DNA from: Planctomycetota bacterium
Lineage (GTDB): Bacteria > Planctomycetota > UBA1135 > UBA2386
Length of the DNA stretch: 64,000 nt
NCBI GenBank assembly: GCA_965223545.1
Contig: OZ245006.1
Coordinates: 6,176,001 to 6,240,000 of the forward strand
Direction: 5' to 3'
The notes under the pieces were generated by a model, which saw nothing but the letters and a program-made list of their open reading frames with translations, ran no database searches and had not been told where the DNA came from. Numbering within the stretch: position 1 is the stretch's first letter; every line of letters starts with the position of its first letter. Both the position numbers and the translations under genes were made by a program. Shown here one piece after another: positions 11,798 to 50,607 of the stretch.

Positions 11798-11798
11798 G

Positions 11799-21592: not shown

Positions 21593-22702
21593 ATGGCCAT
21601 GGGCAGTGGGGTTCGGTCTTGCGGCGCGGCCTTCCGGGTGGTGCCAGTGATCGCGTTGACGAGCGTCACGGCGTGCTGGTCAGCGCGCGGAGTGGAGCCG
21701 CCCGCGGAGACGCCCGCCGCGGCGGGCGCGAACCTGGTGCCCGACGATCCGTCCACCGCGAAGCTGGCCGCGGTCGAGCGGTGGGTGATTCAGCTGCAGG
21801 GGTTGGAGGACGTCGGCGCGATCGGCCGCCTCGCCGGCGTTCCGGCGGACCTGGTCGTCGTCGAGCCGATGCGCTCGCAGCGTGGGTTCGAAGAGTTCCC
21901 GATGGCCGAGGCCGTGGCGCGGATTCAGGCGCCGAGATTCACGACCGGCCGCCGGCGAGTCTGTTTGGCATACCTCAACGTCGGTCAAGCCGAGGACTAT
22001 CGCACCTACTGGACCGAGGGCTGGCGCGCGCCGACCGAAGATGCGCCCGGTCTGCCCAGCTTCCTGCTCACGGTCGACCCGGACGGGTGGGTGGGCAACT
22101 ACCCGGTCGCCTACTGGGACGCCCGCTGGCGCGGTGAGCTGCTGGGGCATCCCGGCGCCCCGTTGGACCAGATCTTGGCCGATGGGTTCGACGGTGTGTA
22201 CCTGGACTGGGTCTTGGGCTACGGCGATCCGGCGGTCGTCGCCGCGGCCCGCGATGCCGCGATCGATCCCGAGGAAGCCATGGTGGACTGGCTCACCGAA
22301 GTCCGCGACTACGCCCGGCGTCGCAACCCGGCGTTCGTCCTGATCGCGCAGAACGCGATCGCGCTGGTCGAGCGCCACCCGCGGATGCTGGCGGTCATCG
22401 ACGGTCTCGTGCAGGAAGATCTCTCGTTCCGCGGCCGTGCCGACGCGGCCTGGGACGACGACCACTCGGGTGGCATCGCGGGGGTCGATCACGGCCCATG
22501 GTCGACCGCGGTCCTGGGCCGCCGGCTGGCGGCGGCGCGCGAAGCCGGGCTGACCGTTTTGACCCTCGACTACGCCGTGGATCCGGCGGATGTGCTGTTG
22601 GCGGAGCGCGTCAGCCGCGGCTTCGGCTTGCTGCCAGCAGTCAGCCGCACGCCCCTCGACCGCCTGCCGGAGCACATCTGGAACGCCGTCCCGGCGCGTT
22701 GA
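21593..22702 (+). CDS. Endo-alpha-1,4-polygalactosaminidase-like glycoside hydrolase (GH114/GH166, MJ1477/TM1410-like), probable lipoprotein
   Basis: WVIQLQ, AYLNVGQAEDYRTYW, GFDGVYLD, LIAQN, QEDL, LTLDY motifs; lipobox-like VTAC; divergent from pelA. Start uncertain. Confidence 0.85.
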   Translation: MAMGSGVRSCGAAFRVVPVIALTSVTACWSARGVEPPAETPAAAGANLVPDDPSTAKLAAVERWVIQLQGLEDVGAIGRLAGVPADLVVVEPMRSQRGFEEFPMAEAVARIQAPRFTTGRRRVCLAYLNVGQAEDYRTYWTEGWRAPTEDAPGLPSFLLTVDPDGWVGNYPVAYWDARWRGELLGHPGAPLDQILADGFDGVYLDWVLGYGDPAVVAAARDAAIDPEEAMVDWLTEVRDYARRRNPAFVLIAQNAIALVERHPRMLAVIDGLVQEDLSFRGRADAAWDDDHSGGIAGVDHGPWSTAVLGRRLAAAREAGLTVLTLDYAVDPADVLLAERVSRGFGLLPAVSRTPLDRLPEHIWNAVPAR

Positions 22703-34293: not shown

Positions 34294-34471
34294 GGCGGTC
34301 TCGGTCGGAGGTGTCTCCAGCTATCGTAAGAGTTGGGCACCCGCCGTCGAGGCGCGGTCTCGGTCGCGCGCTCGCCTCCCTGCCACGGGATCGTGGAGCA
34401 GCCAAGCGCGGGGTGGATCGCGCGGTGGCCGGTGGGTAAACCGGCGAGGACTGCAGCTACGAGGTCGCCGC

Positions 34472-34906
34472 ATGCTGGTGAAGAGCGCCCTGGTGCGCAA
34501 ACCCCTGACCGTCGGTCCCGACACGTCGTTGACCGAGTTCATCGATGCCGTGCTCGACTCCAACCAAACCACCGCCGCCGTCATCGAGGGGGAGCGGCTG
34601 GTCGGCATGGTGTCGGCGATGGACGTGTTCCGGCGCATCGTGCCGCCGTATCTCGAGCGCGACACGCACCTGCTGACCGCGGTGCGCGACAGCTACTTCG
34701 ACGAGAAGTTCGAGAAGTTTCGCCACGTCGCGGTGCGTGAGATCATGGTCAGCGCCCCCGATGTCCTGGCGCCGGAGGAGTCGGTGGCGCGTGCGGTGGC
34801 CCTGTTCGTCCACAAGGGCCGCAAGTCGCTCGCCGTCGTCGACGACGGGCGTTACGTCGGCACCATCACGCGGCGCAGCATCCTGCGCACTCTGCGGCGG
34901 CGTTGA
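34472..34906 (+). CDS. CBS-domain pair protein
   Basis: Two CBS motifs (PLTVGPD...LVGMVS; VREIM...VVDDGRYVGTITR); GAGG RBS. Confidence 0.85.
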   Translation: MLVKSALVRKPLTVGPDTSLTEFIDAVLDSNQTTAAVIEGERLVGMVSAMDVFRRIVPPYLERDTHLLTAVRDSYFDEKFEKFRHVAVREIMVSAPDVLAPEESVARAVALFVHKGRKSLAVVDDGRYVGTITRRSILRTLRRR

Positions 34907-34912
34907 TTCGCG

Positions 34913-36259
34913 ATGCTGGGTTCGGCGGACTACTACTGGCTGACGGCCGCGATCTTCGTCCTGGCCTTCGTCGCGATCCTCTCCGAGCGCATCCACAAGA
35001 CCAAGGTGGCGCTGTTCGGCGGCGCGTTGATGGTGGCTCTGCCGATCCTCAGCCAGGACGAGGCGTTCTACTCGGAGCGCTACGGCATCGACTACAACGT
35101 CGTGTTCCTGCTGATCTCGATGATGATCATCGTCAAGATCGTCAGTCTGAGCGGCATCTTCGAGTGGGCGGCAATCCGCGCCGCCAAGTTGGCCGGCGGC
35201 CGTCCGCTCAACATCCTGGTGATCTTCGTCCTGCTCACCGCGGTCGCCTCGGCGTTTCTGGACAATGTCACCACGGTCCTGTTCATCGCGCCGATCACCC
35301 TGCTGATCGCCGATGAGCTCGACGTCGACCCGATTCCGTTTCTGCTGGCCGAGGCGTTGGCGTCGAACATCGGCGGCACCGCGACGCTGATCGGCGACCC
35401 GCCCAACATCATCATCGCCTCGCGCGCCGGTCTGTCGTTCATGGACTTCCTGGTGCACGTCGCGCCCGCCGTGCTGGTGATGATGGCCGCGTTCGTGGTC
35501 GCCATCGTGTTGCTGTTCGGAGGGCGATTGACCGTCGAGGAGAGCAAGCGCCAGCGCATCCTGGCGATGGACGAGCGCACCGTGATCAAGGACGCCTCGT
35601 TGGCGCGGCGCTCATTGGTCGTGCTGGCGCTGACGATCGCCGGCTTCGCGCTGCACGGGGTGCTGCACTACGAGCCGGCGACGATCGCGCTGATGGGGGC
35701 CGGCGCCCTTCTGCTGATCAGCCGGCGCGATCCGCACGAGATCCTGGCCGATGTCGAGTGGCCGACCATCTTCTTCTTCATCGGCTTGTTCTTGATGGTC
35801 GGTGGCGTCGCCAAGGTGGGGTTGATCGAGGACGTCTCGCAGCTGGTGATGGAGGTCACCAAGCCGACGCCCGAGGACACCTACGGCACGAGCATGGTGA
35901 TCTTGTGGTTCTCGGCGGTCGCTTCCGCCGTGGTCGACAACATTCCGTACGTCGCCACGATGGCGCCGCTCGTCGTCGACATGGCCAACAACGTGTTTCA
36001 CAACGGCGAGCTCGAGCAGGTGCCGGCCGAAACCTTGTTGAGCGCGCCGATGCAACCGGTGTGGTGGGCGTTGTCGCTGGGCTCGTGTCTGGGCGGCAAC
36101 GGCACGCCGATCGGTGCCTCGGCAAACGTGATCGTGCTCGGCATCGCGGAGAAGTCCGGGATCATGATCAGCTTCTTGCGCTTCGTGGCCTACGGCGTGC
36201 CCACCGTGCTGGTGACTCTGGCGATCAGCCACGTCTACCTCACGCTGCGCTACTTCTGA
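34913..36259 (+). CDS. ArsB/NhaD (ion transporter superfamily) permease
   Basis: SAFLDNVTT, SNIGGTATLIGDPPNII, SAVVDNIP, GGNGTPIGASAN; many transmembrane helices. Confidence 0.9.
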   Translation: MLGSADYYWLTAAIFVLAFVAILSERIHKTKVALFGGALMVALPILSQDEAFYSERYGIDYNVVFLLISMMIIVKIVSLSGIFEWAAIRAAKLAGGRPLNILVIFVLLTAVASAFLDNVTTVLFIAPITLLIADELDVDPIPFLLAEALASNIGGTATLIGDPPNIIIASRAGLSFMDFLVHVAPAVLVMMAAFVVAIVLLFGGRLTVEESKRQRILAMDERTVIKDASLARRSLVVLALTIAGFALHGVLHYEPATIALMGAGALLLISRRDPHEILADVEWPTIFFFIGLFLMVGGVAKVGLIEDVSQLVMEVTKPTPEDTYGTSMVILWFSAVASAVVDNIPYVATMAPLVVDMANNVFHNGELEQVPAETLLSAPMQPVWWALSLGSCLGGNGTPIGASANVIVLGIAEKSGIMISFLRFVAYGVPTVLVTLAISHVYLTLRYF

Positions 36260-36285
36260 GGCCGGGCGGCGCGCGCCGCCCGGCC
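36260..36285. terminator. Perfect 26-bp GC palindrome between convergent genes (possible bidirectional terminator/stabiliser hairpin)
   Basis: ggccgggcggcgc|gcgccgcccggcc directly after the transporter stop; no U-tract, so terminator function is uncertain. Confidence 0.5.
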
Positions 36286-36295
36286 GCGCTGTCGC

Positions 36296-39280
36296 TCAGC
36301 GCCGGTGGTGGTTGTGCGCGGTCTCGACGCTCAGGTCGTTGCCGTCGCCGTGGCAGATGGCGCAGCTCTCCAGCCCCAGCGCGCTGTTGGCGGCCATGTG
36401 CGCCAAAGCCGTGCGGCCGTCGTGGCAGGAGCCACACACCATTCGCCATTCGAGATGGGGCGCGGTGCTGGCCTCGTCCGGGTGCAGCCGCAGTGTTGGC
36501 GCGTGCCAGGCAGTGTTTCCGGTGCCGTGGCAGGCCTCGCAATTGGCGGTGCCGCCCTTGAACGACGGGAAGCCCACGTGCTCGTAGCTGTGCGGGTTGC
36601 CGCGAAAGCCGATCACTTGATAGTTGGCGCCGGCCGCCAGATCCAAGCCGTGGTGGATCTTGTGGATCATGCCGCGGAACTCGATGGTGACGCCAGGCGT
36701 CGGCAGGCTGCTCAGGCCACTGGTCTTGTAGATCGGCCAGTCCTCGGCGCCGGCGACCCCGTGGCACAATGTGCAGTTGTCGTAGCCGCGGCGATGGGCG
36801 CCGTGGAACTGCAGGTCGCGGTGGCAGGCGTAGCATGAAGCCGCGCTCTCGATGCGGGTATTGGCTTCCAACGGGCCGCTGCTGCCCAGCCGGAACGCCG
36901 CCACCGTGTTGCCTTCGGCCCCCTCGGTGTACGACGTGATCTGGCTGTTGCCGCCACCGCTGACGGTGACGTCGAAGCTGACTTCGCCGTAGATGCCGAG
37001 GCGGTAGGTGCCGTCGACCAGGTCCATTCCGGTCCATTCGCCGATCGTCGCGTCCAGCGCCGGGGCGTTGGGGTCGGTTGACGGGCTGTTGTTGATCGCA
37101 CCGCGGTAGCGCTGCGGAACGGCGAAGTCGGTCGTGTAGGTCACCAGCACGCGGCCGCTCGGCGCTGCGCCGAAGGTGATCGTGCCGGTCGCCTCATCCA
37201 GGGTGAACCCGGTCTCGGCGGTGGCGGTCACGGCGACGACTTCGACGCTCGCACTGGCCAGGTGCTGGTTTCTCGGAACGCTGCCGACCACGTCGATCGG
37301 CGCGGCGAACCACAGCCGATCGTCCTGCACGGCCAGCACCTCGACGTACTCTCGGGACGCGGTGGCTTCGTCGATGACGATGATGTCGCCGGCGGCAAAG
37401 CCCGAGCCATCGGTCACGTCCAGATAGTTCTGGTGGGGCGCGACGTCGGCCGTCAAGAAGACTCCCGAGCTCACGCCGGTCGGCACTGTCCAGACCAGGG
37501 TCTGGCCATGTGTGCCGAAGCGCGTGTCGTAGTGCGGCGTGCGCGCGGTGTTGAACACCGTCGCGGAGACTGGCGTCGCCTCCTCCAGCGGGACCCTCTC
37601 GGGCAGGATGAAGGTGTGGCTGCTGCCGGCGCCGGTCAGGATCGATGTCGGCGACGGCGCGCGGGACGGGTTGCTGTTGAAGCCGGTGAAGTAGAGCGAG
37701 TTGGGATTCTCCACCGGTCCCGTGGCGATGATCTCGACGCGCTCCAGCGCGGCGGGGTCGACCCGCGCGCCCTGGCCGTCGACCAGGTCGACCGCGACCT
37801 CGATCCCCTCGCCGACCTCGATCAAACCGTCGCCGTCACCGTTGACCTCGTTGATCGCGGTGACGTTGAACTGCAGCCCGCGGGCGCCGGCGCCGGCACC
37901 CCACAACGGGGTGGGGCTGGTGTCCAGCAGCGGGTGGGTGTGCGCCTTGCGCACGTTGATCGCGGCGTTCGGGTTGGTCGGCGCCTCGCCGTGGCACGCC
38001 GTGCAGGTGGTGTCGTCCAGCGACGCCGGCATCGTGCGGCCGTTCGCGGTGTAGGGTTTGCTCGGGTCCCAGTCGTCGTGGCAGGCGATGCAGGCCCGGG
38101 TCACGATCGTGTTGCTGAAGATCGCGTCGCCGTCGGCGGGAGGCTGTTGCGGGCCGGTGCCGTCCGGGTCGCCGTGGCAGGCGGCGCAGTTGGTCGGGCC
38201 GCCCAGGATCGCGTCCTCGATGTCCTGCTCGTTGCCCGCCAGGGCGTCGTAGCCGACGTCGCGCGGCATGCCTTGCGACAGGTGCGGCCACTGCGGGAAC
38301 GCGACGTGGGAGAAGTCGAACTCGCCGCGCGAACGCACGATGACGTACGGAGTCGGGCTCCCGTACACCGGGTCGCCGGCGCCGTCCACCGACTTTCCGT
38401 TGACGCTCGGCAGGTGCCGGCCGGAGTGGATCTTGTGGATCATCGTCTGGAACGAGATGCTCAAGCCCAGGGTCTCGCCGGCCACCGCGTTGGGGTCGTT
38501 GAGGTCTTCGGCGCCGTTGGTGTGACACAACACGCACATCGCGACGCCGTAGCGGTTGTCGCCGTGCGCGCGCAGCGTCGTGTGGCAGCTCTGGCAGTTG
38601 GCATCGGTCACCAGCTCGGGATGGTCGATCTGCGTCGCGCTGCCGAACAAGACATCGATGGTCGTCGACGTGGCATCGCGGAAGGTGGTCCCCTCGATCT
38701 CGATGTTCTGCCGCATCGATATGCCGATCGTGTAGGTGCCGTCGGGCAGCGGCTGGCCGGCCAGGGTGCCGGAGTCGTAGGGGATGGTGTTGGCCTGGTT
38801 GATCTGGTCCGGCACCGTCACCGGGATCGGGTCGGGCCAGGTGAACGTCCAGCTGCCATCCGCGTTCTGCGTGGCGTTGTCGGCGATGTCGCGCGTGCTC
38901 AGCATGAGCTGGTAGTTGTTGGCCGGGCCGGCGAACAGCGCTTCCTGGAACGCCCAGTTGGCGGACGGAATCGGATCGCCCGGCGGGTTGCTGCCCTGCG
39001 CGCCCTCGGTCGCGGTGAAGGTGACCGCGATGCGATCGCCCGCGCGGAAGTTGCCGTTGGGCCCGGAGCCGCCGTCGACGTCGACGATCTGCAGGTTGAA
39101 GCCGGGCAGTGCACTGCTACGGGTCAGCGTGGGGGTGTTGCCGCCGGGGGGGCCGGGCGGACCCTGAGCGCCGTCGTCCCCGCTGCACGCTACGCCGAGC
39201 AGTGTCAGAGCCAAGATGGCGCTGGTCCGGCGGTGCGCGTTCACCGGGGGCGGGAAGGCGGAAGTACGGATCGGTGACAT
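36296..39280 (-). CDS. MtrC/OmcA-like decaheme c-type cytochrome lipoprotein (paralog 1, about 994 aa)
   Basis: Lipobox LGVAC then SGDDGAQGPPG; 10 CxxCH in 5+5 layout (CQSCH, CVLCH, CAACH, CIACH, CTACH / CYACH, CTLCH, CEACH, CGSCH, CAICH) separated by beta-rich domains; MIHKIH twice. Confidence 0.9.
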   Translation of the reverse strand: MSPIRTSAFPPPVNAHRRTSAILALTLLGVACSGDDGAQGPPGPPGGNTPTLTRSSALPGFNLQIVDVDGGSGPNGNFRAGDRIAVTFTATEGAQGSNPPGDPIPSANWAFQEALFAGPANNYQLMLSTRDIADNATQNADGSWTFTWPDPIPVTVPDQINQANTIPYDSGTLAGQPLPDGTYTIGISMRQNIEIEGTTFRDATSTTIDVLFGSATQIDHPELVTDANCQSCHTTLRAHGDNRYGVAMCVLCHTNGAEDLNDPNAVAGETLGLSISFQTMIHKIHSGRHLPSVNGKSVDGAGDPVYGSPTPYVIVRSRGEFDFSHVAFPQWPHLSQGMPRDVGYDALAGNEQDIEDAILGGPTNCAACHGDPDGTGPQQPPADGDAIFSNTIVTRACIACHDDWDPSKPYTANGRTMPASLDDTTCTACHGEAPTNPNAAINVRKAHTHPLLDTSPTPLWGAGAGARGLQFNVTAINEVNGDGDGLIEVGEGIEVAVDLVDGQGARVDPAALERVEIIATGPVENPNSLYFTGFNSNPSRAPSPTSILTGAGSSHTFILPERVPLEEATPVSATVFNTARTPHYDTRFGTHGQTLVWTVPTGVSSGVFLTADVAPHQNYLDVTDGSGFAAGDIIVIDEATASREYVEVLAVQDDRLWFAAPIDVVGSVPRNQHLASASVEVVAVTATAETGFTLDEATGTITFGAAPSGRVLVTYTTDFAVPQRYRGAINNSPSTDPNAPALDATIGEWTGMDLVDGTYRLGIYGEVSFDVTVSGGGNSQITSYTEGAEGNTVAAFRLGSSGPLEANTRIESAASCYACHRDLQFHGAHRRGYDNCTLCHGVAGAEDWPIYKTSGLSSLPTPGVTIEFRGMIHKIHHGLDLAAGANYQVIGFRGNPHSYEHVGFPSFKGGTANCEACHGTGNTAWHAPTLRLHPDEASTAPHLEWRMVCGSCHDGRTALAHMAANSALGLESCAICHGDGNDLSVETAHNHHRR

Positions 39281-39370
39281 CGTCGGCTCCGGGTTTCGGG
39301 GGATGAAGGCAGGAGACCTGCATCCTCGAGACGCGCGCGCCAACGTTGCAATTTCCGCCGAGCATCCGGC

Positions 39371-40453
39371 GTGGTGCAGATAGCCGTGCGCTGGAAACCT
39401 CTGTTGCTCTTGGTGGTGTTGGTCGCGATGGCCGGGCTCTTCTTCGGCGTCCGGCGAGCGGCCGATGCCGAGCCCGCCTCCGTTGCGCGCGGTTCGACCC
39501 CGCGCGCGATGCCGATACCGCGTGTGGCGGAGACGATCACGGTCCGCAGCCCGGTCGGCAGCGCGGGGGAGGTCGCCGGCGTCGCCAACCCGATGTCCGA
39601 CGCGGTCGCATCGGCCGGGTTCGGCACCGTGGTGCTGCACGTGCGGTCCACCGGCGAAGAGCCGGCACTTGTTGCGCAGTGGCGGCTCGTGGAGGCCGTT
39701 GCGGGCATGCCGCTGGGCGGTGAGCTCACCGGAGGATTCGCACAGCTCCGGGTCCCGCGCGGTCGCTCGGTGCAGGTCGTGCTCGTGGCCGCCGGTCATC
39801 AGCCGTCGCTACCGGTCGACGTCTCGCTCGCGATCGATGAGCGATCGCGCGCGCTGGTGGTTCCACTGGTTCCGCGTCGCGGTTCTGCCATCGTGCTGCG
39901 GGTCGCCGACCGGCACGGGCGCGCCGTACCCGCCATTCGCGTCCTCGCCGAGCGCCGCGTCGGCTGGCACCAGTGGCAGGCGCGGCCGCCGCGGATTCTG
40001 GCTGCGCACGCGGGATCGTTTTCAGTGCCCGTCCCCCAGGACGGGGCACATCGCTTGAAGGTCGTCGGCTTGGATGCTGCCCATCGCCCCTGGCCGGCTT
40101 TGGCGGTGACCGCCAGTCTTCGCGTGCCGGCCGACGCGGAGGACGCGCTCGACCTGCGGCTGCCGGCGGGCGGGACGGTCGAGCTGTGTGCCGCGGCCGC
40201 GTTGCCGGCGGGGACCACCGCCGAGATCTCCGCGCGCGACGGGCTCGTGCGCGGTCGGCGTTGGTTGCGGCTCGGCGGCGGCGATGCGGTGCCGTGCACC
40301 GTGCTCACCGGCCACCGGCGTTGGGTTTGCGAGCACCCATTCCCGCCCGGTGAGTACACCGTGTTCGTCCATTGGCCGAGCGACGGGCAGAGCTATCCGG
40401 TGCGGGTGCACGCCGACCGTCGCGTGAAAGTCCGGCTCGGACCCCGGAGTTGA
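39371..40453 (+). CDS. Membrane-anchored hypothetical protein with Ig/carboxypeptidase-regulatory-like beta domains
   Basis: N-terminal hydrophobic anchor; LRVADRHGRAVP, PPGEYTVFV patterns; first gene of the cytochrome operon. Confidence 0.65.
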   Translation: MVQIAVRWKPLLLLVVLVAMAGLFFGVRRAADAEPASVARGSTPRAMPIPRVAETITVRSPVGSAGEVAGVANPMSDAVASAGFGTVVLHVRSTGEEPALVAQWRLVEAVAGMPLGGELTGGFAQLRVPRGRSVQVVLVAAGHQPSLPVDVSLAIDERSRALVVPLVPRRGSAIVLRVADRHGRAVPAIRVLAERRVGWHQWQARPPRILAAHAGSFSVPVPQDGAHRLKVVGLDAAHRPWPALAVTASLRVPADAEDALDLRLPAGGTVELCAAAALPAGTTAEISARDGLVRGRRWLRLGGGDAVPCTVLTGHRRWVCEHPFPPGEYTVFVHWPSDGQSYPVRVHADRRVKVRLGPRS

Positions 40454-40498
40454 GTTCTCCCGTGAGCTGCCGACTGGGCGCTGCACGAAGAGCCAGCC

Positions 40499-41917
40499 AT
40501 GAGCCATGAACCGAGGACCGCACCCACCGGCGGCACGCTGGACCGGATCCATCGGCTGATCCGCTCGAACTGGCTGTCGTCGAGCGGGGCCGCGATCGCC
40601 ACGCTGGGGTTGCTCGGCACGGTGACCGGGCTTTCGCTGCACGCCGCCGGTGCTTGGAGTGGCCCCTACGTCGGCATTCTGACGGTGATCGTCCTGCCGG
40701 CGCTGTTCGTCTTCGGCCTGCTGCTCGTGCCGCTCGGCTTGCTGGTCTACCGGCGGCAGCTGCACGACCGCGTGCGGCGCCTCGCCGACCGGCCGATGTA
40801 CCTGGCGCGCGCAGTGGCCGCGCTGACCATCGTCAACTTCGCAGGGGTCGCCACCGTCGGCTACACCGGCGTCAGCTACATGAGCTCGACGCAGTTCTGC
40901 GGCACCGCCTGCCACCAGGCGATGGAGCCGGAGTACCTGGCCTATCAGCACTCACCCCACGCCAACGTCGGCTGTGTCGCGTGCCACGTCGGCGAGGGTG
41001 CCCAGGCGTTCGTCGAGTCCAAGCTCAACGGCGTCAGCCAGCTGATCGGCTACTTGACCGACGACTACAGCCGGCCGATCCCAACGCCGGTGCACAACCT
41101 GCGGCCGGCGGACGAGACCTGCGAGAATTGCCATTGGCCGGAGAAATACCTCGGCACCAAGCTGATGGTGCGGCCGCACTACCGCGAGGACGAGGCGGTC
41201 TCCGCCTACGTCAACGTGCTGTTGATGCGCACCGGCGGGACGCGCGCCGATGGCGCGTCGACCGGTATCCACTGGCATGCCCATCCGGACGTGACGGTCG
41301 AGTACGTCGCCACCGATCCGCACCGCGAGAAGATCCCGTGGGTGAGGGTGCGCGACCGCGACGGCAGCGAGCGCGTGTTCACCGAAGAAGGCGTCGACCC
41401 AAGCACACCGCCACCCGGTGCGCTGCGGCGGATGGACTGCACCGACTGCCACAACCGTGCCGCGCACGCCTTCGAGCGCCCCGAGGACGCGGTCGACGCC
41501 GCGATCGCGGCCGGCATGATCGACCGCAGGCTTCCCTTCGTGCGCAAGCACGCCGTCGAGGTCCTGCGCATGGGGCACACCCGCGAGGGCGCGGCGGCCG
41601 CGATCCGCCGCGCCATGCACGCGGCGTACAACGCCGATGGCGTGCTCGATGCCGACACCCGGCCGGCGCTGGAACCGGCGATCGAGGCCTTGATCGAGAT
41701 CTGGCAGCGCAACGTCTACCCCGATCGCAAGCTGTTCTGGGACTCGTATCCCGACCTCAGCGCCCACTACGGCTGCATGCGCTGCCATGAAGGCAATCAC
41801 CGCGACGCCGCGGGCGCGGTGATCCCGTCCAAGTGCAACGTCTGCCACGTCGTCTTGAGCGACGAGGAGGAGGACCCCGCGATCTTGAATGCGTTGGGGT
41901 TGCAGTTGCCGCGGTGA
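40499..41917 (+). CDS. NapC/NirT-domain inner-membrane multiheme cytochrome, ImcH-like
   Basis: Three N-terminal transmembrane helices (PYVGIL...), FCGTACH..M.PEY (CxxxCH) plus CVACH, CENCH, CTDCH, CMRCH, CNVCH; GIHWH. Confidence 0.85.
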   Translation: MSHEPRTAPTGGTLDRIHRLIRSNWLSSSGAAIATLGLLGTVTGLSLHAAGAWSGPYVGILTVIVLPALFVFGLLLVPLGLLVYRRQLHDRVRRLADRPMYLARAVAALTIVNFAGVATVGYTGVSYMSSTQFCGTACHQAMEPEYLAYQHSPHANVGCVACHVGEGAQAFVESKLNGVSQLIGYLTDDYSRPIPTPVHNLRPADETCENCHWPEKYLGTKLMVRPHYREDEAVSAYVNVLLMRTGGTRADGASTGIHWHAHPDVTVEYVATDPHREKIPWVRVRDRDGSERVFTEEGVDPSTPPPGALRRMDCTDCHNRAAHAFERPEDAVDAAIAAGMIDRRLPFVRKHAVEVLRMGHTREGAAAAIRRAMHAAYNADGVLDADTRPALEPAIEALIEIWQRNVYPDRKLFWDSYPDLSAHYGCMRCHEGNHRDAAGAVIPSKCNVCHVVLSDEEEDPAILNALGLQLPR

Positions 41918-43668
41918 GGGTGAAGCGGCAGTTCTGGCGGCACTCCTGGCTCGCCGCTGTCGTCGCGGTGACGGCACCGGTGCCGGCACAGGACCCCCGC
42001 CCCCCGCGGCGGCCGCCGCCACTGGACGAAACCGAGGCGGCGGCGCGCGCGTTGGAGAAGCTGCTCGGCAAGGGTGTGCAGCGAGTGGACGAGAGCAATC
42101 GCGCCGAGCTGCTACCGCAGGGGCCGCCGCCGCGGGCAGTGACCGAAGCGCAGGGTGTGGGTCCGCCGGGTGTCGGTGGACCGCCGCCGTACGGGCCGCC
42201 GGCCGCGGGGCCGCGGGGAGCCCCGCCGCAGGACCCCCGCGCCCCGCCGCGCGCCGAGCCGCTGCGCGAGCCCGAGGCCGCTGCCGAGGCCTTGCGTCAG
42301 TTGTTGCCGCAGGCACAGCCTGTGACCGAGCGGCCGACCGAGCCGCTTCGCCCGACGGGCGATCCTCCGCCCGGTCCGGCGATACCGCCGCCGTTGCCGC
42401 CGCGCGAGGTCCCCGCCGGCGCCGCGGCCGCTCCCGCTCCGCCGGCGCTGGGTGTGCGCGGCACTCTGTCGCTGCGCTACCTCGGGCGCTGGGCCGATGA
42501 CCGCGACCAAGACCTGCGCGGCGTGTTGGCGTTCGACGTGGGTGAGGCCGACGCGCACCCGCTGACGTTCCACTTCGTGGGCCGCGGCCAGCTCGATCTC
42601 GACGGCCGCCAGCAGGCGAACGGGTTCAACGGTCTCGAGGAGTCCTTTGGCCGGGCGCAGACCGGTCGGATCTACGACGCCTATCTCGACGTGCACGCGG
42701 TCGAGGGCCTGGGCATCGCGCGCCTGGGGCGGCAGTCGATCTACGATACTCCCGAGCTCGCGTTCTTCGACGGCGTGCGAGTGCAGAGTGAGGAGCTCGG
42801 CACGCTCCGCGCCTGGGTCGGTGGCTACGGCGGCGTCCCGGTGCACCTGTTCGAGGCGTCGGCGCGCGGCGATTGGCTCGGCGGCGTCTGCGCGGGCGCT
42901 CGCCCATGGCGCGGCGGGCGTGTGCGGCTCGACGGCATGTACGCCCGGGACCGGACCACTGGGGGAACGCTCGACGACGATCTGTGGGCGGTGTCGGTGT
43001 GGCAGTCGATGTCCGACGCAGTGTCTTTGCACGGCAGTCACTCGTGGCTCGGCGGGGCGGCCCGAGACCTGCGCTTGACGCTGGACGCGGCCGCGTCCGA
43101 GGGGCTCGACGTGCGCGCCCGATACTTCGAGCTGTTGCGCACGCAACACTGGCGTGCCCTCGAGTTCGACCCGTTCTCCAGCGCGACGATCGCCTACCGG
43201 CCCTACCGGCAGCTCGACCTGTCGGTGGCGCAGGCGCTGGGCGAGGTCGCCGAGGTCGCGGTCGGTTACGACCTGCGGCGGCTGGCGGATCGCAGCGCGG
43301 AGGCGGCGTTCAACCGTGAGTTCGACCGCGCCTACGCGACGTTGGCGATCGACGGAGTGGGCGGGATGGACTTCGGTGGCGACGTCACCGCCGAGCATTG
43401 GGACAGCTCGGGCGAGGACGTGTTCGCCATCGACGCTTCGGTGCGCGCCGCGTTGTCGGCGCAGTGGCGTGCGACGGTGGGGACCGCGTACTGGCACTAC
43501 AAGATGGACCACCTGCGCGGTCGCGAGCAGGAACGCGTCCGCGCGTACTTCTTGCGCTTCGACGGCCGCCTTGGCGATCGCTTGCGCTTCGACTTGGACT
43601 ACTCCTACGAGGATGGCGAGTTCGACCGCTACCACTCGCTGCGAGGAGGCTTGACATGGCAGTTCTGA
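41914..43668 (+). CDS. Outer-membrane beta-barrel porin with proline-rich N-terminal extension
   Basis: Signal peptide, about 150 aa Pro-rich segment, then alternating beta-strands (ARLGRQ, FFDGVRV) ending LRGGLTWQF; GTGA overlap with the upstream stop (alternative GTG 41920). Confidence 0.8.
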   Translation: MRVKRQFWRHSWLAAVVAVTAPVPAQDPRPPRRPPPLDETEAAARALEKLLGKGVQRVDESNRAELLPQGPPPRAVTEAQGVGPPGVGGPPPYGPPAAGPRGAPPQDPRAPPRAEPLREPEAAAEALRQLLPQAQPVTERPTEPLRPTGDPPPGPAIPPPLPPREVPAGAAAAPAPPALGVRGTLSLRYLGRWADDRDQDLRGVLAFDVGEADAHPLTFHFVGRGQLDLDGRQQANGFNGLEESFGRAQTGRIYDAYLDVHAVEGLGIARLGRQSIYDTPELAFFDGVRVQSEELGTLRAWVGGYGGVPVHLFEASARGDWLGGVCAGARPWRGGRVRLDGMYARDRTTGGTLDDDLWAVSVWQSMSDAVSLHGSHSWLGGAARDLRLTLDAAASEGLDVRARYFELLRTQHWRALEFDPFSSATIAYRPYRQLDLSVAQALGEVAEVAVGYDLRRLADRSAEAAFNREFDRAYATLAIDGVGGMDFGGDVTAEHWDSSGEDVFAIDASVRAALSAQWRATVGTAYWHYKMDHLRGREQERVRAYFLRFDGRLGDRLRFDLDYSYEDGEFDRYHSLRGGLTWQF

Positions 43669-44666
43669 AGCGTCGCGGGGCGCGCTGGTGGCTTGTTCTC
43701 GGGCTCCTGGTCGGCACCGCCGCGTGTTTCGTCGCCGGGTGGCGCGGACGGGAAGAGCCGCGGTTCTCCCACGCGGTGCACGGCGAGGACCAGGGCCTGA
43801 CCTGTGTGCAGTGCCATTCCGGCGCGCGCTTGGCCGCGGGCGCCGGAATGCCGGGGCCGCAGCTGTGCCAACCCTGCCACGAGCGCTTCGATGCGGACAA
43901 GCCGCCGGATCGCCGCCTGGCGGCGTACTTCGACGCCAGCGGCCGGTTTCTTCGCACGCCCCGGTCGCCGCTGTCGGTCGAGGTGGCGTTCTCGCACGCG
44001 GCGCACGCGCTGCGGGATGTCGGCTGCCGCGACTGCCACGCGGACCTGGACGGCGGCGCCGCGGTGCCGCCGACTCCGGCGGCGCGCAAGGATCAGTGCA
44101 TGCAGTGCCACCAGCGTGCCGGCAGGAGCAACGAGTGCGCCGAGTGCCACCGCGAGGTCGACCGCGACTGGGTGCCCGCGACGCATTCGCTGCAGTGGGA
44201 GCACCGGCACGGCGACTGGCTGCGCGCCGATCCGGGTGGATTGGCCGCGCGGTGCGACCTCTGCCACCAGCAGTCCAGCTGTCAGACGTGCCACCGCGAG
44301 CAGCTGCCCCGCGACCACACGCACCATTGGCGGCGGCGTGGTCACGGCTTGGCGGCGTCGATCGACCGCAGTCGCTGCAGTACCTGCCACCGCTCGGACG
44401 CGTGCGATCGCTGCCACGAGTCGACGCGGCCGATGAGCCACGGCGGCACCTTCGGCGCGCCGCGCAGCAGACACTGCACTTCGTGCCATCTGCCGGTCTC
44501 CGCCACCGGCTGCTTCACCTGCCACAAGCACACGCCGAGCCACACGCTGGCGGCGCCGTTGCCGCCCGGCCACTCGCCGGCAATGAACTGCCGCCAGTGC
44601 CATGGCGCCGGTGCGTCGATGCCACACCCCGACGGAGGTCACGCATGCACGGCCTGCCATCGATGA
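43656..44666 (+). CDS. 13-heme c-type cytochrome (exported, cytochrome c3/c7-like N-half)
   Basis: GGAGG RBS; hydrophobic N-terminus; 13 CxxCH motifs in 336 aa; FSH..H motifs. Confidence 0.92.
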   Translation: MAVLKRRGARWWLVLGLLVGTAACFVAGWRGREEPRFSHAVHGEDQGLTCVQCHSGARLAAGAGMPGPQLCQPCHERFDADKPPDRRLAAYFDASGRFLRTPRSPLSVEVAFSHAAHALRDVGCRDCHADLDGGAAVPPTPAARKDQCMQCHQRAGRSNECAECHREVDRDWVPATHSLQWEHRHGDWLRADPGGLAARCDLCHQQSSCQTCHREQLPRDHTHHWRRRGHGLAASIDRSRCSTCHRSDACDRCHESTRPMSHGGTFGAPRSRHCTSCHLPVSATGCFTCHKHTPSHTLAAPLPPGHSPAMNCRQCHGAGASMPHPDGGHACTACHR

Positions 44667-47464
44667 AACTACAGCTCGCGACCATCGTCTTGGCCGGATG
44701 TGGCCTCGGTTGTGATGGCGACCGCGGTCCACCGGGCGTGTCCGGTCCGAGCGGAAGCCCGCGTCCGCAGGGGCTGGTCGTGCGCATCGATCGGCTGGGC
44801 GGCGCGACCGGAGGCGACGGCTCGTTCCGCGTCGGCGATCGCGTGGTCGTCGAGTTCACCGTCACCGATGGCAATGGCCAGCCACTGTCGATGGCGGACT
44901 TGGCGCACGGCGCGGCGATGCTCTCGGGCCCGACCTTCAACTACCAGCGCGTGCTGGGGCGCAGCGGCGACGTTCGCGCGACGGCGACGGCACTGGGGGC
45001 GGGCGCGTTCCGCTATCGCTTTGCGGCTGGAATTCCCGCCACCTACCTGCCGCCCCTCAACGACAGTGCGCGGTTCACCATCGGGGAGTTGCGCGGCCAG
45101 CCGCTGTTGGCCGGCACCTACACCGTGGGACTCGTGCTGGCGCGCGACGAGGACGACGGAGGGCAAGTCGTCCGCACGGCGATCAACGCGACCGCGGACC
45201 TGCGCTTCGGCGGCGCCGCGGCGATCGAGCCGCGCGACGTGGCCTCCGCTGCCAGCTGCCGCCAATGCCACGGCAGCCTGCGCGCGCACGGCGAGAGCCA
45301 CGCTTCGCTGACGAGCTGTCTGTTGTGCCACACGGCCGGTGCCGAGGACCACGCCGACCCGGCCATCGCCGGCGGCACCCCCGACGTCACCATCGACCTC
45401 GACGTACTGATCCACAAGATCCACGCCGGGCGGCATCTGCCGTCAGTGGCGGGCGTCGGCACCGCGGCCGACGGCAGTCGCACCTACGGGCCGGGGCGGC
45501 CCTATCGCGTGGTCGGTGCGGGCGGCGTCGTGCACGACTATTCGGCGATCGGCAATCCCGTCTGGCCGGCCGCCGCAGCACCGATGCCGCGCGATGTCGG
45601 TTGGGCATCGCTGGGCGCCGCCGAGCGCGCGGCAGAGGACGCCGTCCGCAGCGGGCCGGTGGATTGCGCGGCGTGCCACGGCGACCCGGACGGCGCGGGG
45701 CCCGCGCCGGCGCCACGCCAGGCGGCGTTGATCTACGCCCAGCCTTCGCGCATGGCGTGTGGCTCCTGCCACGACGACTGGGCGTTCGACGCACCCTACA
45801 CCGCGAACCGGCAGACGATGCCACCGCAAACCGACGACGCGACGTGTATCCAGTGCCACAAGCCAGCCGGGGGACCGCTCGACGTCGCCGACGCGCACCG
45901 CCACCCGCTGTCGGACCCCGCGGTCGTGGCCGGCGTTCGCTTGGAGTTGACCGCGGCGCGGCCGGCGGGAGCACACAATGGCGACGCGAGCCTCGACCTC
46001 GGCGAGGGCATCGAGATCGAGTTCCACCTGCGCGACGCGAACGGGCGCGATCTGGATCCGGCCTTGCTGGACGACATGGACGTGGTGCTGACGGGTCCGT
46101 CCCACAACCCGAACCTGGTGCTGGCCTCGGAGATCCCGATCGCCGCCTTGACGTCGGGCTCCGCGCAACGCATCCAGGTGCCCGAACGGATCGCGCTCGA
46201 GCGCGTTGGACAGGCGACCGCGACGCCAGGGGAGACCTTCGTCACCGCTCGTAGCCCCCATTGGCACGTGGTGGGTGGCGAGACGAGGGTCTGGGCGACC
46301 CGCGCGCTCGGCCCGGCCTCCGCGTTGGCGGGGCCGGCGCCGGTGGGGCAGAACTACGTCGACCTCGTCGCCGGGGGCGGTGCGGCGTTCGGGCGGGACG
46401 ACTGGGTCGTCTTGGATGCCGGTACGGTTGCCGCCGAATACCGCATCGTGCAGTGGGTCGATGGCGACCGGCTTTGGTTCTCGTCGCCGGCGACCCCGCA
46501 GTACCCCGCGGCGCTCCAGGTGGCGCACGCGCCGTCGGCGCCGATCGCCGTCGCATCGGTCACCTTGTTGCAGGCCGGGGTCGACTACTCGTTGGATCCA
46601 AGCAGGGGAGCGATCACCGAGCTCCGTGAGTTCGGCGCCGGGAGCGACGTGTTGGCGTCGTACACCACGGACTTCGTCATGCCGCCGGCATACGGGCCGA
46701 CGTGGCATGACTCGCCGGCGTTCGGCGAGAGCGCCGGTGAGTGGTCGGGCAAGCCGATCGTCGCGGGCACGTACGGGTTGGCGTTGTCGGCTTCCCGCGG
46801 CGTCACCGTCGATGTGCTGGGCGAGGCCTCGCCGTACACCGACGCGGCGCCGGCTGCCGTGGTCGATCTGCCGGTCGGCGGGGTCGGTCCGCTGCTGCCC
46901 CGCGCCGTGCTGGAGTCGGTGCAGGTGTGCGGGCGCTGCCACGGCGAGGTGACCGGCCACGGCGGCGCGCGGCGGGGGGTGGCCGGCTGCATCACCTGCC
47001 ACGCGGCCGGCGGTGCCGAGGACCTCGCGCGCTACGTCGCCGCCAATGCTCCGGCCAATCAGGTCACCGTCGATTTCCGCGCGCTGATGCACCGCGTGCA
47101 CGCCGGCGCCGGCCTGCAGGGCAGCCCCGGCCCCGTGGTCGGCGCCGGAAGTGCTCCCTACCCCGACAACTTCACCCTGCGCAGCTTCGCCGGTGTCGTC
47201 TTCCCTTGGCATGCCGGCGTCGCCGACTGCCGCGTGTGCCACGGCGATGCGCCGGCCTGGCAGGTGCCGTTGGGCCGTGACCATCCCACCGCGCAGGGGA
47301 CGGCGGTGGGGGCTTGGCGCGTCGTCTGTGCCTCGTGCCACGATGGGCGGGCCGCCACCGGGCACATCGCCGCCAACACAGCGGTCACCACCGGAGTCGA
47401 GACCTGTGCCCAGTGCCACGGTCCCGGCCGCGTCCACGCCGTCGAGGCCGTGCACCGGCGGTAA
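44663..47464 (+). CDS. MtrC/OmcA-like decaheme c-type cytochrome lipoprotein (paralog 2, about 933 aa)
   Basis: ATGA overlap; lipobox LAGC/GLGC then DGDRGPPG; 10 CxxCH in 5+5 layout (CRQCH, CLLCH, CAACH, CGSCH, CIQCH / CGRCH, CITCH, CRVCH, CASCH, CAQCH). Confidence 0.9.
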   Translation: MKLQLATIVLAGCGLGCDGDRGPPGVSGPSGSPRPQGLVVRIDRLGGATGGDGSFRVGDRVVVEFTVTDGNGQPLSMADLAHGAAMLSGPTFNYQRVLGRSGDVRATATALGAGAFRYRFAAGIPATYLPPLNDSARFTIGELRGQPLLAGTYTVGLVLARDEDDGGQVVRTAINATADLRFGGAAAIEPRDVASAASCRQCHGSLRAHGESHASLTSCLLCHTAGAEDHADPAIAGGTPDVTIDLDVLIHKIHAGRHLPSVAGVGTAADGSRTYGPGRPYRVVGAGGVVHDYSAIGNPVWPAAAAPMPRDVGWASLGAAERAAEDAVRSGPVDCAACHGDPDGAGPAPAPRQAALIYAQPSRMACGSCHDDWAFDAPYTANRQTMPPQTDDATCIQCHKPAGGPLDVADAHRHPLSDPAVVAGVRLELTAARPAGAHNGDASLDLGEGIEIEFHLRDANGRDLDPALLDDMDVVLTGPSHNPNLVLASEIPIAALTSGSAQRIQVPERIALERVGQATATPGETFVTARSPHWHVVGGETRVWATRALGPASALAGPAPVGQNYVDLVAGGGAAFGRDDWVVLDAGTVAAEYRIVQWVDGDRLWFSSPATPQYPAALQVAHAPSAPIAVASVTLLQAGVDYSLDPSRGAITELREFGAGSDVLASYTTDFVMPPAYGPTWHDSPAFGESAGEWSGKPIVAGTYGLALSASRGVTVDVLGEASPYTDAAPAAVVDLPVGGVGPLLPRAVLESVQVCGRCHGEVTGHGGARRGVAGCITCHAAGGAEDLARYVAANAPANQVTVDFRALMHRVHAGAGLQGSPGPVVGAGSAPYPDNFTLRSFAGVVFPWHAGVADCRVCHGDAPAWQVPLGRDHPTAQGTAVGAWRVVCASCHDGRAATGHIAANTAVTTGVETCAQCHGPGRVHAVEAVHRR

Positions 47465-47466
47465 GC

Positions 47467-47547
47467 CTCCGGCGCCGCGATTCGTCGAGCTGCGACAGCA
47501 TTCTCGAGGCGACGTCGCTGCCATGGCAACGGCGCCGCGGCGCCGGA
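47467..47547 (+). repeat. 81-bp dispersed intergenic repeat, copy B, with 12-bp terminal inverted repeats
   Basis: tccggcgccgcg (47468-47479) / cgcggcgccgga (47536-47547); 85% identical to copy A; fills the gap between convergent stops. Confidence 0.85.
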
Positions 47548-49248
47548 TCAGTACCAGTAGTAGTGGAAGTCGTAGTCGAGCTCGACCTGCGCACCCGGCT
47601 GCAGCTCGACGTCCCAATCGATGCGCGCGATGCCGTTGACGTGGTGCCACCACCAGGGCCAGGGATACCCGCGCCACCAGCTGGCGGCGCCGGTCTCGCC
47701 GGGCGGGGTCTCGAACACGTGGCGTGCGCTGATCGCCCCATCGCCACTCGCGCGGTCGGCGTAGCCGAGGACGTGGCGCCGCACTTCGACGGTCACCGGC
47801 TCGCTCGAGTGGCTGGTCAGCACCAGCCGGCCGTGCACGTCGATGCGCAGGTAGTCGTGGTCGGCGAACCGCTTCTCGCGCGCCGTCCGCTTGGTCTCGC
47901 CCTCGTGCTTGGCGACCGCGATGTTGACTGCGGTGGTGATCGTCAGGTCGGAGCGGCCACCGATGGGGGTGTAGGTCATCATGCTCTGCGCCAGCACGCG
48001 GCCGTCGGCACCGAGCAGCAACGCCGGTGCAGTCGTCAGCGGCGCCGCGCTGGTGTTGTGCAGGCGGACCGCGTGCATTGCCTTGGGCGCGTGCTGCAGC
48101 GCGACCAGGTTGGAAAGGCGCCGCTGGTCCAGCTGTTGCCACACTTGGGGTGGTGGCGTGATCGGCACATCGAGGCGGTAGACGTCGCGATACGGGATCT
48201 CGAACGAGGTCAGCGGCACGACCATGCGCTCGCCCTCTCGCAGGGTCACCCCGTCGACGGTGAATACGAAGAGGTCTTCGGCGGCGCTGTCGGTGGCCAG
48301 CGATGTCGTGTCTTCGGCCGCCGCCGCACGCTGTACCGTCGAGGGCTGCTGGGTCATGATGGCGTTGCTGAACGCGTAGGCCGTCTGCGAGTCTTGGCGG
48401 AAGTGCGACGACAGCGCTGCCGCGGTCTCTTGCAGCGCCATGGGGTCCAGGGTGTCGGCGAAGCGAAACTGAGGCACGCCGATGACCAGGTTCGCGGTCG
48501 CGTCTTCGAGGTCGGCGAGCTCGTTGACCAAGGTCGCCTGCAGCGCGACGCGCGCTTTGCCGTCGTCACCCAGCTCGACGCGGTAGCTCGGAATCCACCG
48601 CAGGCCCTTCTGCACGTATGCCATGCCGACCTCTGCTTCGGCGGCGGGTGCGCCGTCCCAGTCTAGGCGCAGCTCGAGCCGGCCGCGCACCTCCTCCACG
48701 GCTTCGGTTGCCTCGTAGTCACCCCGGAAGGTGAGCTGCCGGATCTGGTCGATGCGCGCGACACGCACGCCGTCGGCGGTGCGGAGCAGCACGATCTCTC
48801 CCGGCTGCGAGGGCTCGGTGCGGGTCGCGGGGCCGCGGGGGATTGCCTCGATGCGTGCCGCGTAGCGCTCGCCGTTGTCGTTGACGATGACCTCGGCGCC
48901 GACGTTGGCCTCGATGAGGGCGCGCACGCCAACGGCGGGTCTTCGCGTTGGTTCGACCCGTTTGCCGGCGACCACCGCGGCCAAGCGCGCGCCGCCCGCC
49001 GCGAATGGCCACAGCGTGCCCATGAGTGGCTGTGGCAGCTCTTCGAGGACCGCGTGGCCGCGCGCGTCGACCGCGGCGCGGCCGCGGCGGACGACGAACG
49101 AGTGGCCGTCCTTGAAGACGGTGACCTCGGTGATCGGCAGCTTCGACGCCGGGGTCGGGGGCTGCGCGGGGAGGGCGTTGGCCAAAACGAGACCGAACGC
49201 GATGCGACGGAGTGAGCAGAAGAGTGCGAGGATCGAGTGGTTTTGCAT
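47548..49248 (-). CDS. DUF4139/DUF4140-like secreted protein
   Basis: Signal peptide; ITEVTVFKDG, GLRWIPSYRVEL, ATLVNE, LHNTS..PLTTAP, WDVELQPG. Confidence 0.7.
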   Translation of the reverse strand: MQNHSILALFCSLRRIAFGLVLANALPAQPPTPASKLPITEVTVFKDGHSFVVRRGRAAVDARGHAVLEELPQPLMGTLWPFAAGGARLAAVVAGKRVEPTRRPAVGVRALIEANVGAEVIVNDNGERYAARIEAIPRGPATRTEPSQPGEIVLLRTADGVRVARIDQIRQLTFRGDYEATEAVEEVRGRLELRLDWDGAPAAEAEVGMAYVQKGLRWIPSYRVELGDDGKARVALQATLVNELADLEDATANLVIGVPQFRFADTLDPMALQETAAALSSHFRQDSQTAYAFSNAIMTQQPSTVQRAAAAEDTTSLATDSAAEDLFVFTVDGVTLREGERMVVPLTSFEIPYRDVYRLDVPITPPPQVWQQLDQRRLSNLVALQHAPKAMHAVRLHNTSAAPLTTAPALLLGADGRVLAQSMMTYTPIGGRSDLTITTAVNIAVAKHEGETKRTAREKRFADHDYLRIDVHGRLVLTSHSSEPVTVEVRRHVLGYADRASGDGAISARHVFETPPGETGAASWWRGYPWPWWWHHVNGIARIDWDVELQPGAQVELDYDFHYYWY

Positions 49249-49458
49249 GATTGGCGTGTTGGATCGCCCCGCTAGACGGCTCGAGTGGCGGTCGGCTTCG
49301 TCACGCGCAGGTAACGAGCTGCCCCGCGCGCCTCGCCGCGCGGCGGCCGGGGGATTCCTCCCCGCCATGGCACCGCGCCTCGCACCTCACGCCAAAACCT
49401 GCCATGATTCGGGAGACGGAATCCCCTTCGTCTGTTTTCTACGAACCCAAGGACCGGC

Positions 49459-50607
49459 ATGAACAGATACGTCCTCCCGGCGGCGTTGGCACTCGCCATC
49501 GCGCCACCCCTGCTCGCGCAGGACGAGGCGGCTGCCAAGCTGAAAGCGATGCAGGCGTCGTTCGACGCGGCCGTCGCCGCCTACTCCAAGGCGGCGCGCG
49601 AGCTGGCGCAGACGGAAGCCTACAAGCAGGCAGTTGCCGAGCGCGATCGCGACAAGATCACCGAGTTGCGCGCATCCATCGATCCGATCGACTTCGACGG
49701 CTTCATCGAGAAGTTCCAGGCGGCCGCCACCGAGCACGCCGGCACCGACGATGCGGTCGGCTTTCTGGTGTGGATCACCAAGAACGGTGGTCGGAGCAAC
49801 CCGGAAGCCGCCGTCGCCGCGACCAAGACCCTGCTCGCCGATCACGGCGAGAACGAGCAGCTGATCCAGCTGGTCGAGAACCCGTACATGCTTGCTTCGG
49901 TGGCGCGCGACGACGCGGCCGCGCTGTTGACGCAGCTCGCCGACGCCACGCCGCACGACACCGTGCTCGCGCACGCGCTCTACGCGCGCGCCACGCTCGC
50001 CCAGCGCGACCGCAACGCGAGCGAAGAAGACCAGCAGCGCGCCGCGACCGACTTGGTCCGCGCCCGCGAGCTGGCCGAGGGCACGTTGCTGGCAGACCGC
50101 ATCGATGCGCCGGAGTTCGAGGCCAACAACCTGCAGATCGGCATGGAGGCGCCGGACATCGTCGGTCACGACATCGACGGCGTGCCGTTCAAGCTGTCCG
50201 ACTACCGCGGCAAGGTCGTGGTGCTCGACTTCTGGGGCGATTGGTGAGGCCCTTGCCGGGCCATGTACCCCCACGAGCGGTCGCTCGTGAAGCGTTTGAA
50301 GAACAAGCCGTTCGCGTTGATCGGCGTCAACAGTGACAAGGACAAGGCCGTGCTCAAGGAGCGCATCCGCGAGGAGAACATCACCTGGCGCAGCTTCTGG
50401 AACGGCCCACTCGGCACCAGCGGACCGATCTCCACCAAGTGGAACGTCCGTGGTTGGCCGACCATCTACATCATCGATGAGAAGGGTGTCATCCGCTACA
50501 AGAACAAGCGTGGCCGTGCCATGGACGAGGCGGTCAACGAGCTTCTGGTGGCGATGGACGTCGACCTTGGCGAGCACCTCTACAGCGAAGAGGACGCCGG
50601 CAACTGA
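49459..50607 (+). CDS. TlpA/ResA-like thiol-disulfide oxidoreductase, probable selenoprotein (UGA at 50245-50247, UxxC)
   Basis: ORFs 49459..50247 and 50263..50607 are in frame: [43 protein letters not shown]...IGVNSD...WNVRGWPTIYIID..G.IR; signal peptide and helical N-domain. Confidence 0.9.
50248..50289 (+). promoter_or_regulatory. Candidate bacterial SECIS element
   Basis: Hairpin CACGAGC-GGUC-GCUCGUG (50272-50289), loop starting 31 nt after the UGA; small hairpin GGCCC-UUGCC-GGGCC (50248-50262) directly after the UGA. Confidence 0.7.

Follow-up and report, generated by a model that had tools for sequence, protein, structure and literature searches.

Mtr and Pcc, two kinds of outer-membrane porin-cytochrome conduit, are regarded as having evolved independently (PMC4245776). 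In Pcc clusters, a gene for an 18-22-strand porin adjoins a gene for a 5-14-heme cytochrome. A two-gene cluster of Kuenenia, with a porin and a 14-heme cytochrome of 338-344 aa, was listed among them as a distant member in 2014 (PMC4245776). The inner-membrane cytochrome ImcH is defined by three membrane helices, a CX3CH motif beside them and 5-9 CX2CH motifs (PMC6295460). The present work concerns a locus within a 64,000-nucleotide stretch of DNA from a Planctomycetota bacterium (assembly GCA_965223545.1, contig OZ245006.1, positions 6,176,001 to 6,240,000 of the forward strand), referred to here as the window. The locus has four cytochrome genes around a porin gene. An operon encodes an ImcH-type cytochrome (N), the porin, a 13-heme lipoprotein (C13) and a decaheme lipoprotein (D), and a divergent gene encodes a second decaheme lipoprotein (A). 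The operon probably encodes a porin-cytochrome conduit that connects the menaquinol pool, through the outer membrane, with external acceptors. This reading builds on the genes, their motifs, linkage and homologies, and on structure models of the barrel, of the insertion of C13 and of the MtrC fold of D.

By sequence comparison the core of the locus, the porin with C13, falls within the anammox-type Pcc family; it does not belong to MtrCAB. C13 aligns over its full length with Kuenenia CAJ74788 (30% identity, E 7e-50), and the porin does so with CAJ74787 (24%, E 6e-27). Given the 338-aa size, the motif number and the adjacency, these accessions are taken to be the kuste4024/kuste4025 pair of Ca. 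Kuenenia stuttgartiensis, which has the same gene order, 13-14 motifs and lipobox as the pair described here. Twelve porin-positive genomes belong to one family (f40). Hydrazine synthase is present in 4 of the 4 tested and absent from the window's genome. The five f40 loci that were fetched hold only the porin and a 13-14-heme gene, and their proteins fall into clusters together with named proteins of Kuenenia, Brocadia and Jettenia. No surface cytochrome or quinol oxidase accompanies the anammox pair, whereas both flank the pair in this locus. An anammox orthologue has been reported as expressed during electrode respiration (bioRxiv 10.1101/855817). Because the core is homologous to the anammox pair, it is native to Planctomycetota and is not a Geobacter part. 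The preliminary description of this locus, made from the letters of the window, had counted both the ImcH-like cytochrome and the porin as Geobacter-like, which holds for the cytochrome and not for the porin.

That description had also proposed a non-MtrA core, and this is borne out. C13 scores 16.1 bits with the MtrA model TIGR03508 (cut-off 192.2), and sequence searches of solved structures gave no MtrA. The MtrB/PioB model PF11854 has no match in the porin and none genome-wide. Compared with Shewanella MtrCAB, MtrA is missing here and MtrB is absent from the genome, and standard MtrA/MtrB models miss this conduit. The barrel is predicted to have 22 strands versus approximately 28 predicted for MtrB, which places it within the size range of Pcc porins such as those of the Geobacter conduits OmaB-OmbB-OmcB and ExtABCD. 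The Pcc features found here are the 22 modelled strands, the 13 motifs, the adjacency of the two genes, the homology to the listed Kuenenia pair and the modelled insertion.

The porin has no match in Pfam, NCBIfam or sequence searches of PDB structures. Its N-terminal part of approximately 170 residues is rich in proline, the barrel follows, and the final residue is Phe. Residues 175-584 were modelled from a 56-row alignment as an empty, plug-less barrel of 22 long strands (pLDDT 92.9), in line with the earlier suggestion of a beta-barrel porin. The best fold matches of the model are 22-strand barrels, those of TonB receptors and of ushers (Z 18.8, rmsd 4.2, 352 aligned); they show how large the barrel is and do not point to a function. 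A TonB receptor was rejected as the identity of the barrel; the plug domain is absent and linkage to C13 is strict. MtrB is not among the listed fold matches, an absence that does not exclude it.

C13 is itself a lipoprotein, and 98 of 106 distinct homologues have a lipobox pattern ahead of the heme region. Over its first 150 residues, C13 is similar to ActA, QrcA and c7/PpcA. Eleven His residues outside the motifs are invariant in 31 rows and two further ones are kept in 30 and 25 rows, so that there are enough distal-ligand candidates for every one of the 13 hemes. Homologues with 15, 17 and 23 heme motifs stand behind the same porin at loci L059, L060, L064 and L065, which suggests a wire of adjustable length.

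Whether the barrel could hold the 13-heme protein had been set beforehand as a test of the preliminary description. The porin and C13 complex model reached a score of 0.63, against 0.00 for the best of three controls. The mark used for this score is attained by 116 of 157 solved complexes and by 2 of 215 mismatched pairs. Contact agreement between model runs was at least 77% and partner pLDDT at least 66. The model supports the placement of C13 inside the barrel, without showing binding. The modelled contacts involve C13 residues 132-264 (alignment numbering, as for the residues below), corresponding to hemes 5-9 and 11. They alternate along the strands round the barrel and are polar, as expected of a lumen (mean hydropathy −1.07 versus +0.54 for their neighbours). 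Barrel R281 (56/56 rows) touches C13 D210 (31/31 rows; Glu in anammox), and both the Arg and the acidic residue are conserved in the Kuenenia pair. Strand parity suggests that the best contacts sit at the rim on the outer side, which would place hemes 1-4 and the lipid anchor in the periplasm and the last hemes outside. The barrel, the inserted wire and the conserved Arg-acid contact together offer a concrete model of the conduit that has been put forward to account for electrode respiration in anammox bacteria.

In N, residues 29-51, 47-88 and 99-125 form three hydrophobic stretches, and its three membrane helices, CX3CH motif and five CxxCH motifs fit the definition of ImcH, as the preliminary description had supposed. 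Residues H139, K175, Q181 and Y190 are spaced like H137, K173, Q179 and Y188 of the ImcH quinol site (bioRxiv 10.1101/2023.05.03.539133), a correspondence made by spacing alone. The first three are kept in 13 of 13 rows and Y190 in 11 of 13, so that four of the five named quinol-site residues are present. ImcH has seven hemes and N has six, and sequence searches with N also match NrfH. N is predicted from its sequence to be a menaquinol oxidase. A 2018 survey gives an ImcH count of zero in Planctomycetes and none adjoining mtrAB (PMC6295460), and ImcH homologues are mentioned in the wider group in PMC4251993. Quinol oxidases had been said to be normally encoded apart from such conduits. Clusters of the two have been reported before: cymA/mtrH with mtrCAB (PMC6295460), and ImcH/NapC-like genes beside larger porins in porin-cytochrome clusters (PMC13264449).

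The decahemes A and D, 37% identical to each other, each have a lipobox, two PF22113 matches and hemes arranged as 5+5. With TIGR03507 they score 207.5 bits (A) and 208.8 bits (D), just below the curated cut-off of 209.3. D was modelled at pLDDT 82.5, and its closest fold is that of OmcA (Z 21.6, rmsd 4.7, 564 aligned), followed by UndA (Z 19.0) and MtrC (Z 18.0). The next fold match has Z 11.0 and covers an extra beta-rich insert in domain III. The model supports a four-domain OmcA/MtrC fold with two pentaheme domains, shared with the MtrCAB/OmcA/UndA proteins of Shewanella, and the earlier assignment of the decahemes as MtrC/OmcA-like is upheld. Decahemes of this family are 930-1100 aa long, carry the domain III insert and differ from those of Shewanella in lacking the CX8C pair. 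Mature A and D contain no Cys outside the signal lipobox and the heme motifs, hence no such pair. Among 71 decaheme homologues, non-heme Cys number zero in 44, one in 19 and at least two in 8. The CX8C pair limits flavin-driven peroxide in air in Shewanella (PMC9973256).

The coordinates of the locus and its surroundings are given in Table 1. The four cytochrome genes hold 38 CxxCH motifs and one CX3CH motif, which confirms the 39 motifs counted earlier. The overlapping stop and start codons are confirmed as well: the N/porin and C13/D junctions are 4-base overlaps and the porin/C13 overlap is 13 bases. The four overlapping genes could be expressed as one unit. Only 19 open frames with at least three heme motifs occur in the 8.1 Mb genome, four of them at this locus, so the cluster of motifs is not due to chance. 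GC3 of the locus genes is 0.87-0.92. The genome has two contigs, 70% GC and 91% completeness. A contig from a public run is identical to positions 35500-47545 with zero differences, and that run may be the source sample.

Table 1. Features of the conduit locus and neighbouring features (window positions).
Feature	Positions	Strand	Description
pel-like exopolysaccharide locus	8850-22700		approximately 14 kb from the conduit
CBS-domain gene and transporter gene	34187-36259	+	ArsB/NhaD/CitMHS-type transporter; convergent with A
Gene A, MtrC/OmcA-type decaheme lipoprotein	36296-39280	-	994 aa, 10 CxxCH, lipobox Cys32, PF22113 E 4e-38
360-aa gene, no family	39371-40453	+	between A and N; N-terminal hydrophobic stretch
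Gene N, ImcH-type inner-membrane cytochrome	40499-41917	+	472 aa, 5 CxxCH and CGTACH (CX3CH), PF03264
Porin	41914-43668	+	584 aa, zero heme motifs, predicted 22-strand barrel
C13, 13-heme lipoprotein	43656-44666	+	336 aa, 13 CxxCH
Gene D, decaheme lipoprotein, predicted MtrC/OmcA fold	44663-47464	+	933 aa, 10 CxxCH
Palindromic repeat	47464-47547		84 bp, directly 3' of D
606-aa secreted-looking protein	47548-49368	-	convergent with D
Thioredoxin-like (TlpA/ResA) frame	49459-50607	+	in-frame TGA at first Cys of CxxC, frame then continues

Conservation of the locus was counted in stretches, loci and genomes that overlap as samples and come from related organisms. In a strict first look, the porin was matched in 32 of 61 related genomes including the host's own, and in 22 of 36 others in its family. 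All 22 porin-bearing family genomes have an MtrC-like gene and 20 have an ImcH-like gene. The 14 porin-negative family genomes have an MtrC-like gene in one case (a half gene) and no ImcH-like gene. A half MtrC-like gene was noted in G032, and one split into two pentaheme halves in G044 (L161, L162). In 32 of 33 fetched stretches the gene directly behind the porin is C13; the remaining stretch is a 2.5 kb contig. Further counts were made on the best 80 of 100 loci found with the C13 pattern, with loci that had room as the denominators. The porin is directly upstream of C13 in 77 of 79 (one miss is a script artefact), and the MtrC-like gene is directly downstream of C13 in 54 of 73. An ImcH-like gene is directly upstream of the porin in 17 of 66 assessable loci. 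The full order N-porin-C13-MtrC-like is present in 14 of 61 loci, and of 45 long loci 20 contain all four genes. The union of an MtrC-fold terminal and a Pcc-type core in one operon recurs in dozens of genomes.

The porin family comprises 1005 clusters at 50% identity (E up to 0.001). Its tree is a quick one with unresolved deep forks, so neither a donor nor an order of events is claimed. All named matches of the C13 profile are from Planctomycetota (best 120 of 235), and ten distant porin representatives include no named non-planctomycete. C13 look-alikes also occur in Atlas clusters dominated by Verrucomicrobiota, Hydrogenedentota and Myxococcota; since the named porin and C13 matches stay within the phylum, any spread beyond it is indicated by these look-alikes alone.

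The proposed mechanism covers quinol oxidation, the step from N to C13, the export and docking of D, the direction of flow and the acceptor. By homology with ImcH, N would oxidise menaquinol at a His/Gln heme and pass electrons through its six hemes to the periplasm. From there they would pass to hemes 1-4, the c7-like head of C13 that carries the lipid anchor, either directly or via a shuttle encoded elsewhere, and this is the weakest link of the chain. In the model, the central part of C13 occupies the lumen of the 22-strand barrel, with the invariant Arg facing the invariant Asp and the last hemes likely at the outer face. D, and probably A, would be exported by type II secretion, take electrons from C13 and reduce acceptors such as Fe(III)/Mn(IV) oxides or humic matter. 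On this reading the host would respire metals or electrodes. The host also respires oxygen, so the conduit would be a low-oxygen outlet.

Several features of the host genome bear on this mechanism. Its named closest relatives are Planctomycetota, in agreement with the host suggested at the outset. It has menD, and the futalosine menaquinone route was not found in the genome. The heme-maturation genes that the preliminary description had advised looking for are present as CcsA/CcsB, approximately 5 kb from type II secretion genes gspDEFG (L168:10314-18519, L169:3937-7127); this ccsB/ccsA pair near gspDEFG is the only such pair in the genome. The host also has four heme-copper oxidase-family genes, alternative complex III beside an aa3-type oxidase, and a cluster resembling that of periplasmic nitrate reductase. 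Two more large multiheme clusters are present. In one of these (L146:5563-9542; G000:C1, approximately 201.5-205.6 kb), the gene for an 18-heme cytochrome precedes that for an 808-aa protein that has 3 heme motifs and matches DUF6850 weakly; this may be a second porin-cytochrome system. The other (L147:6147-15821; G000:C1, approximately 4761-4771 kb) encodes an FAD/4Fe-4S oxidoreductase followed by 23-, 7- and 11-heme proteins.

Several observations weigh against an outward chain of this composition. Geobacter ImcH passes electrons to soluble PpcA, and a PpcA counterpart is absent from this locus; the locus has no gene for a small triheme or tetraheme periplasmic shuttle, and elsewhere the genome has only distant matches. 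The claim that one locus encodes the whole path from quinone to cell surface was therefore overstated, given also that the ImcH-like gene adjoins the porin in only 17 of 66 assessable loci. Tetraheme genes do stand beside the conduit in many relatives (55 and 20 loci for two families). The ImcH residue E127 is not kept in N, where Ser129 takes its place (Ser in 7, Asp in 3, Gly in 2 and Asn in 1 of 13 rows). The CX8C pair is missing from A and D although the host has its four heme-copper oxidase-family genes. A barrel-held cytochrome has already been solved in MtrAB, and the complex score may partly mirror likeness to that arrangement. The anammox evidence is one of expression alone, and no row labelled as this pair was found among the differentially expressed genes in the supplements of PMC7188810. 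Co-occurrence within the family overstates linkage because the genomes are related. In a sample of the phylum, the porin profile is present in 63 of 301 genomes and the MtrC-like profile in 27, of which 22 have the porin and 5 do not. Four genomes of family f42 have an MtrC-like gene without the conduit in the fetched contig stretch (L157-L160). Conversely, the porin pair occurs without MtrC in 12 of 12 anammox genomes, none of which is matched by the MtrC-like profile, and among 9 genomes with the porin in other families of the order, 7 lack an MtrC-like gene. At L032-L036, L038 and L039, in these other families, the porin and C13 are followed by 4-, 8-, 11- or 16/17-heme genes and not by MtrC. 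Because each occurs without the other, the partners of the conduit are interchangeable. The same stand-alone genes, the two-gene anammox loci and the variable gene order, with N seldom adjacent, could be taken to mean that the genes are mere neighbours: the porin and C13 would act alone as in anammox, the decahemes separately, and N would feed periplasmic reductases. Set against this are the overlapping reading frames at this locus, the MtrC-like gene directly behind C13 in most loci and the near-perfect genome-level co-occurrence within the family, and this reading is considered very improbable.

Two further explanations keep the conduit intact and change its use. Electrons could flow inward, from Fe(II), reduced humics or a cathode to the quinone pool for oxygen or nitrate respiration. 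Mtr-type conduits are reversible (PMC6295460), the decahemes are without the CX8C switch, and the alternative complex III beside the aa3-type oxidase and the nitrate reductase-like cluster would suit such flow. ImcH, however, has so far been implicated in quinol oxidation only (PMC6295460), and oxidative systems are reported to lack an MtrC-like part or to have none identified (PMC4245776); inward flow is considered unlikely. Export could also serve ends other than minerals, such as redox balancing or electron storage in oxic/anoxic swings, partner cells or soluble extracellular compounds. The core is present in all the listed anammox genomes and in many unrelated families, so that it is not confined to known metal reducers; organisms that do not reduce metals also have porin-cytochrome clusters (PMC4245776); and peat systems of similar layout have been proposed to target organic matter (bioRxiv 10.64898/2026.05.27.727921). 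A dedicated ImcH-type input and MtrC-fold terminals are nevertheless what Geobacter and Shewanella employ towards solid acceptors, and non-mineral export is considered rather unlikely. The outward conduit to external acceptors such as metal oxides or humic matter is preferred.

A broader proposal can be made tentatively, and is itself doubtful. Planctomycetota may possess a phylum-wide conduit, consisting of a 22-strand barrel and a 13-heme wire with a c7-like head in place of a soluble shuttle, the ends of which are interchangeable: none in anammox, and a disulfide-less MtrC-fold terminal with an ImcH input in the oxygen-respiring family studied here. If true, this would be the first case of an MtrC-fold cytochrome that functions on a Pcc-type core and in the absence of MtrAB. 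It would also explain in structural terms how anammox bacteria respire electrodes, and would add a common uncultured lineage to the electroactive bacteria. In any case the conduit makes a large uncultured share of Planctomycetota candidates for extracellular electron transfer.

Elements of the arrangement have been reported before. Multiheme clusters were described earlier in lake Planctomycetota, PCC genes in Planctomycetota metagenome-assembled genomes (PMC10732223, PMC13264449), and MtrC outside mtrAB operons (PMC12133095, PMC11492766). The main text of an MtrCAB survey (PMC8805035) does not contain the words 'Planctomyc', 'ImcH' or 'Pcc'. The clusters EET1-EET4 of peat Acidobacteriota and Verrucomicrobiota (bioRxiv 10.64898/2026.05.27.727921) resemble this locus in being divergent porin-cytochrome clusters of uncultured lineages with MtrC-like and 8-13-heme proteins. 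Compared by description only, they differ in belonging to other phyla and in a main text without ImcH; the supplements of that work could hold a homologous system. The preliminary description had not recognised the arrangement as a described system. This stands for the four-gene set, which was not found in the literature searched (most subscription papers lie outside its coverage), and fails for the core, which belongs to the family of the Kuenenia pair listed in PMC4245776. Not found in print is the wiring of this core to a surface cytochrome of MtrC type together with an input of ImcH type.

Within the locus, a promoter/terminator scan gave nothing above chance. The 360-aa protein, matched by no Pfam or NCBIfam model, has a weak homologue (48 bits) in 1 of 33 related loci and is probably an accessory. 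The 84-bp repeat after D is REP-like, with a folding energy of −46.6 kcal/mol and 88 BLAST matches in the genome, and may act as a terminator. The 606-aa protein beyond it has no Pfam or NCBIfam matches and homologues in 0 of 33 related loci. The CBS-domain and transporter pair is not kept near the conduit in relatives. The interrupted TlpA/ResA frame is likely a selenocysteine protein. The pel-like locus contains PelG, a PelF-type glycosyltransferase, a large TPR protein and a GH114 hydrolase.

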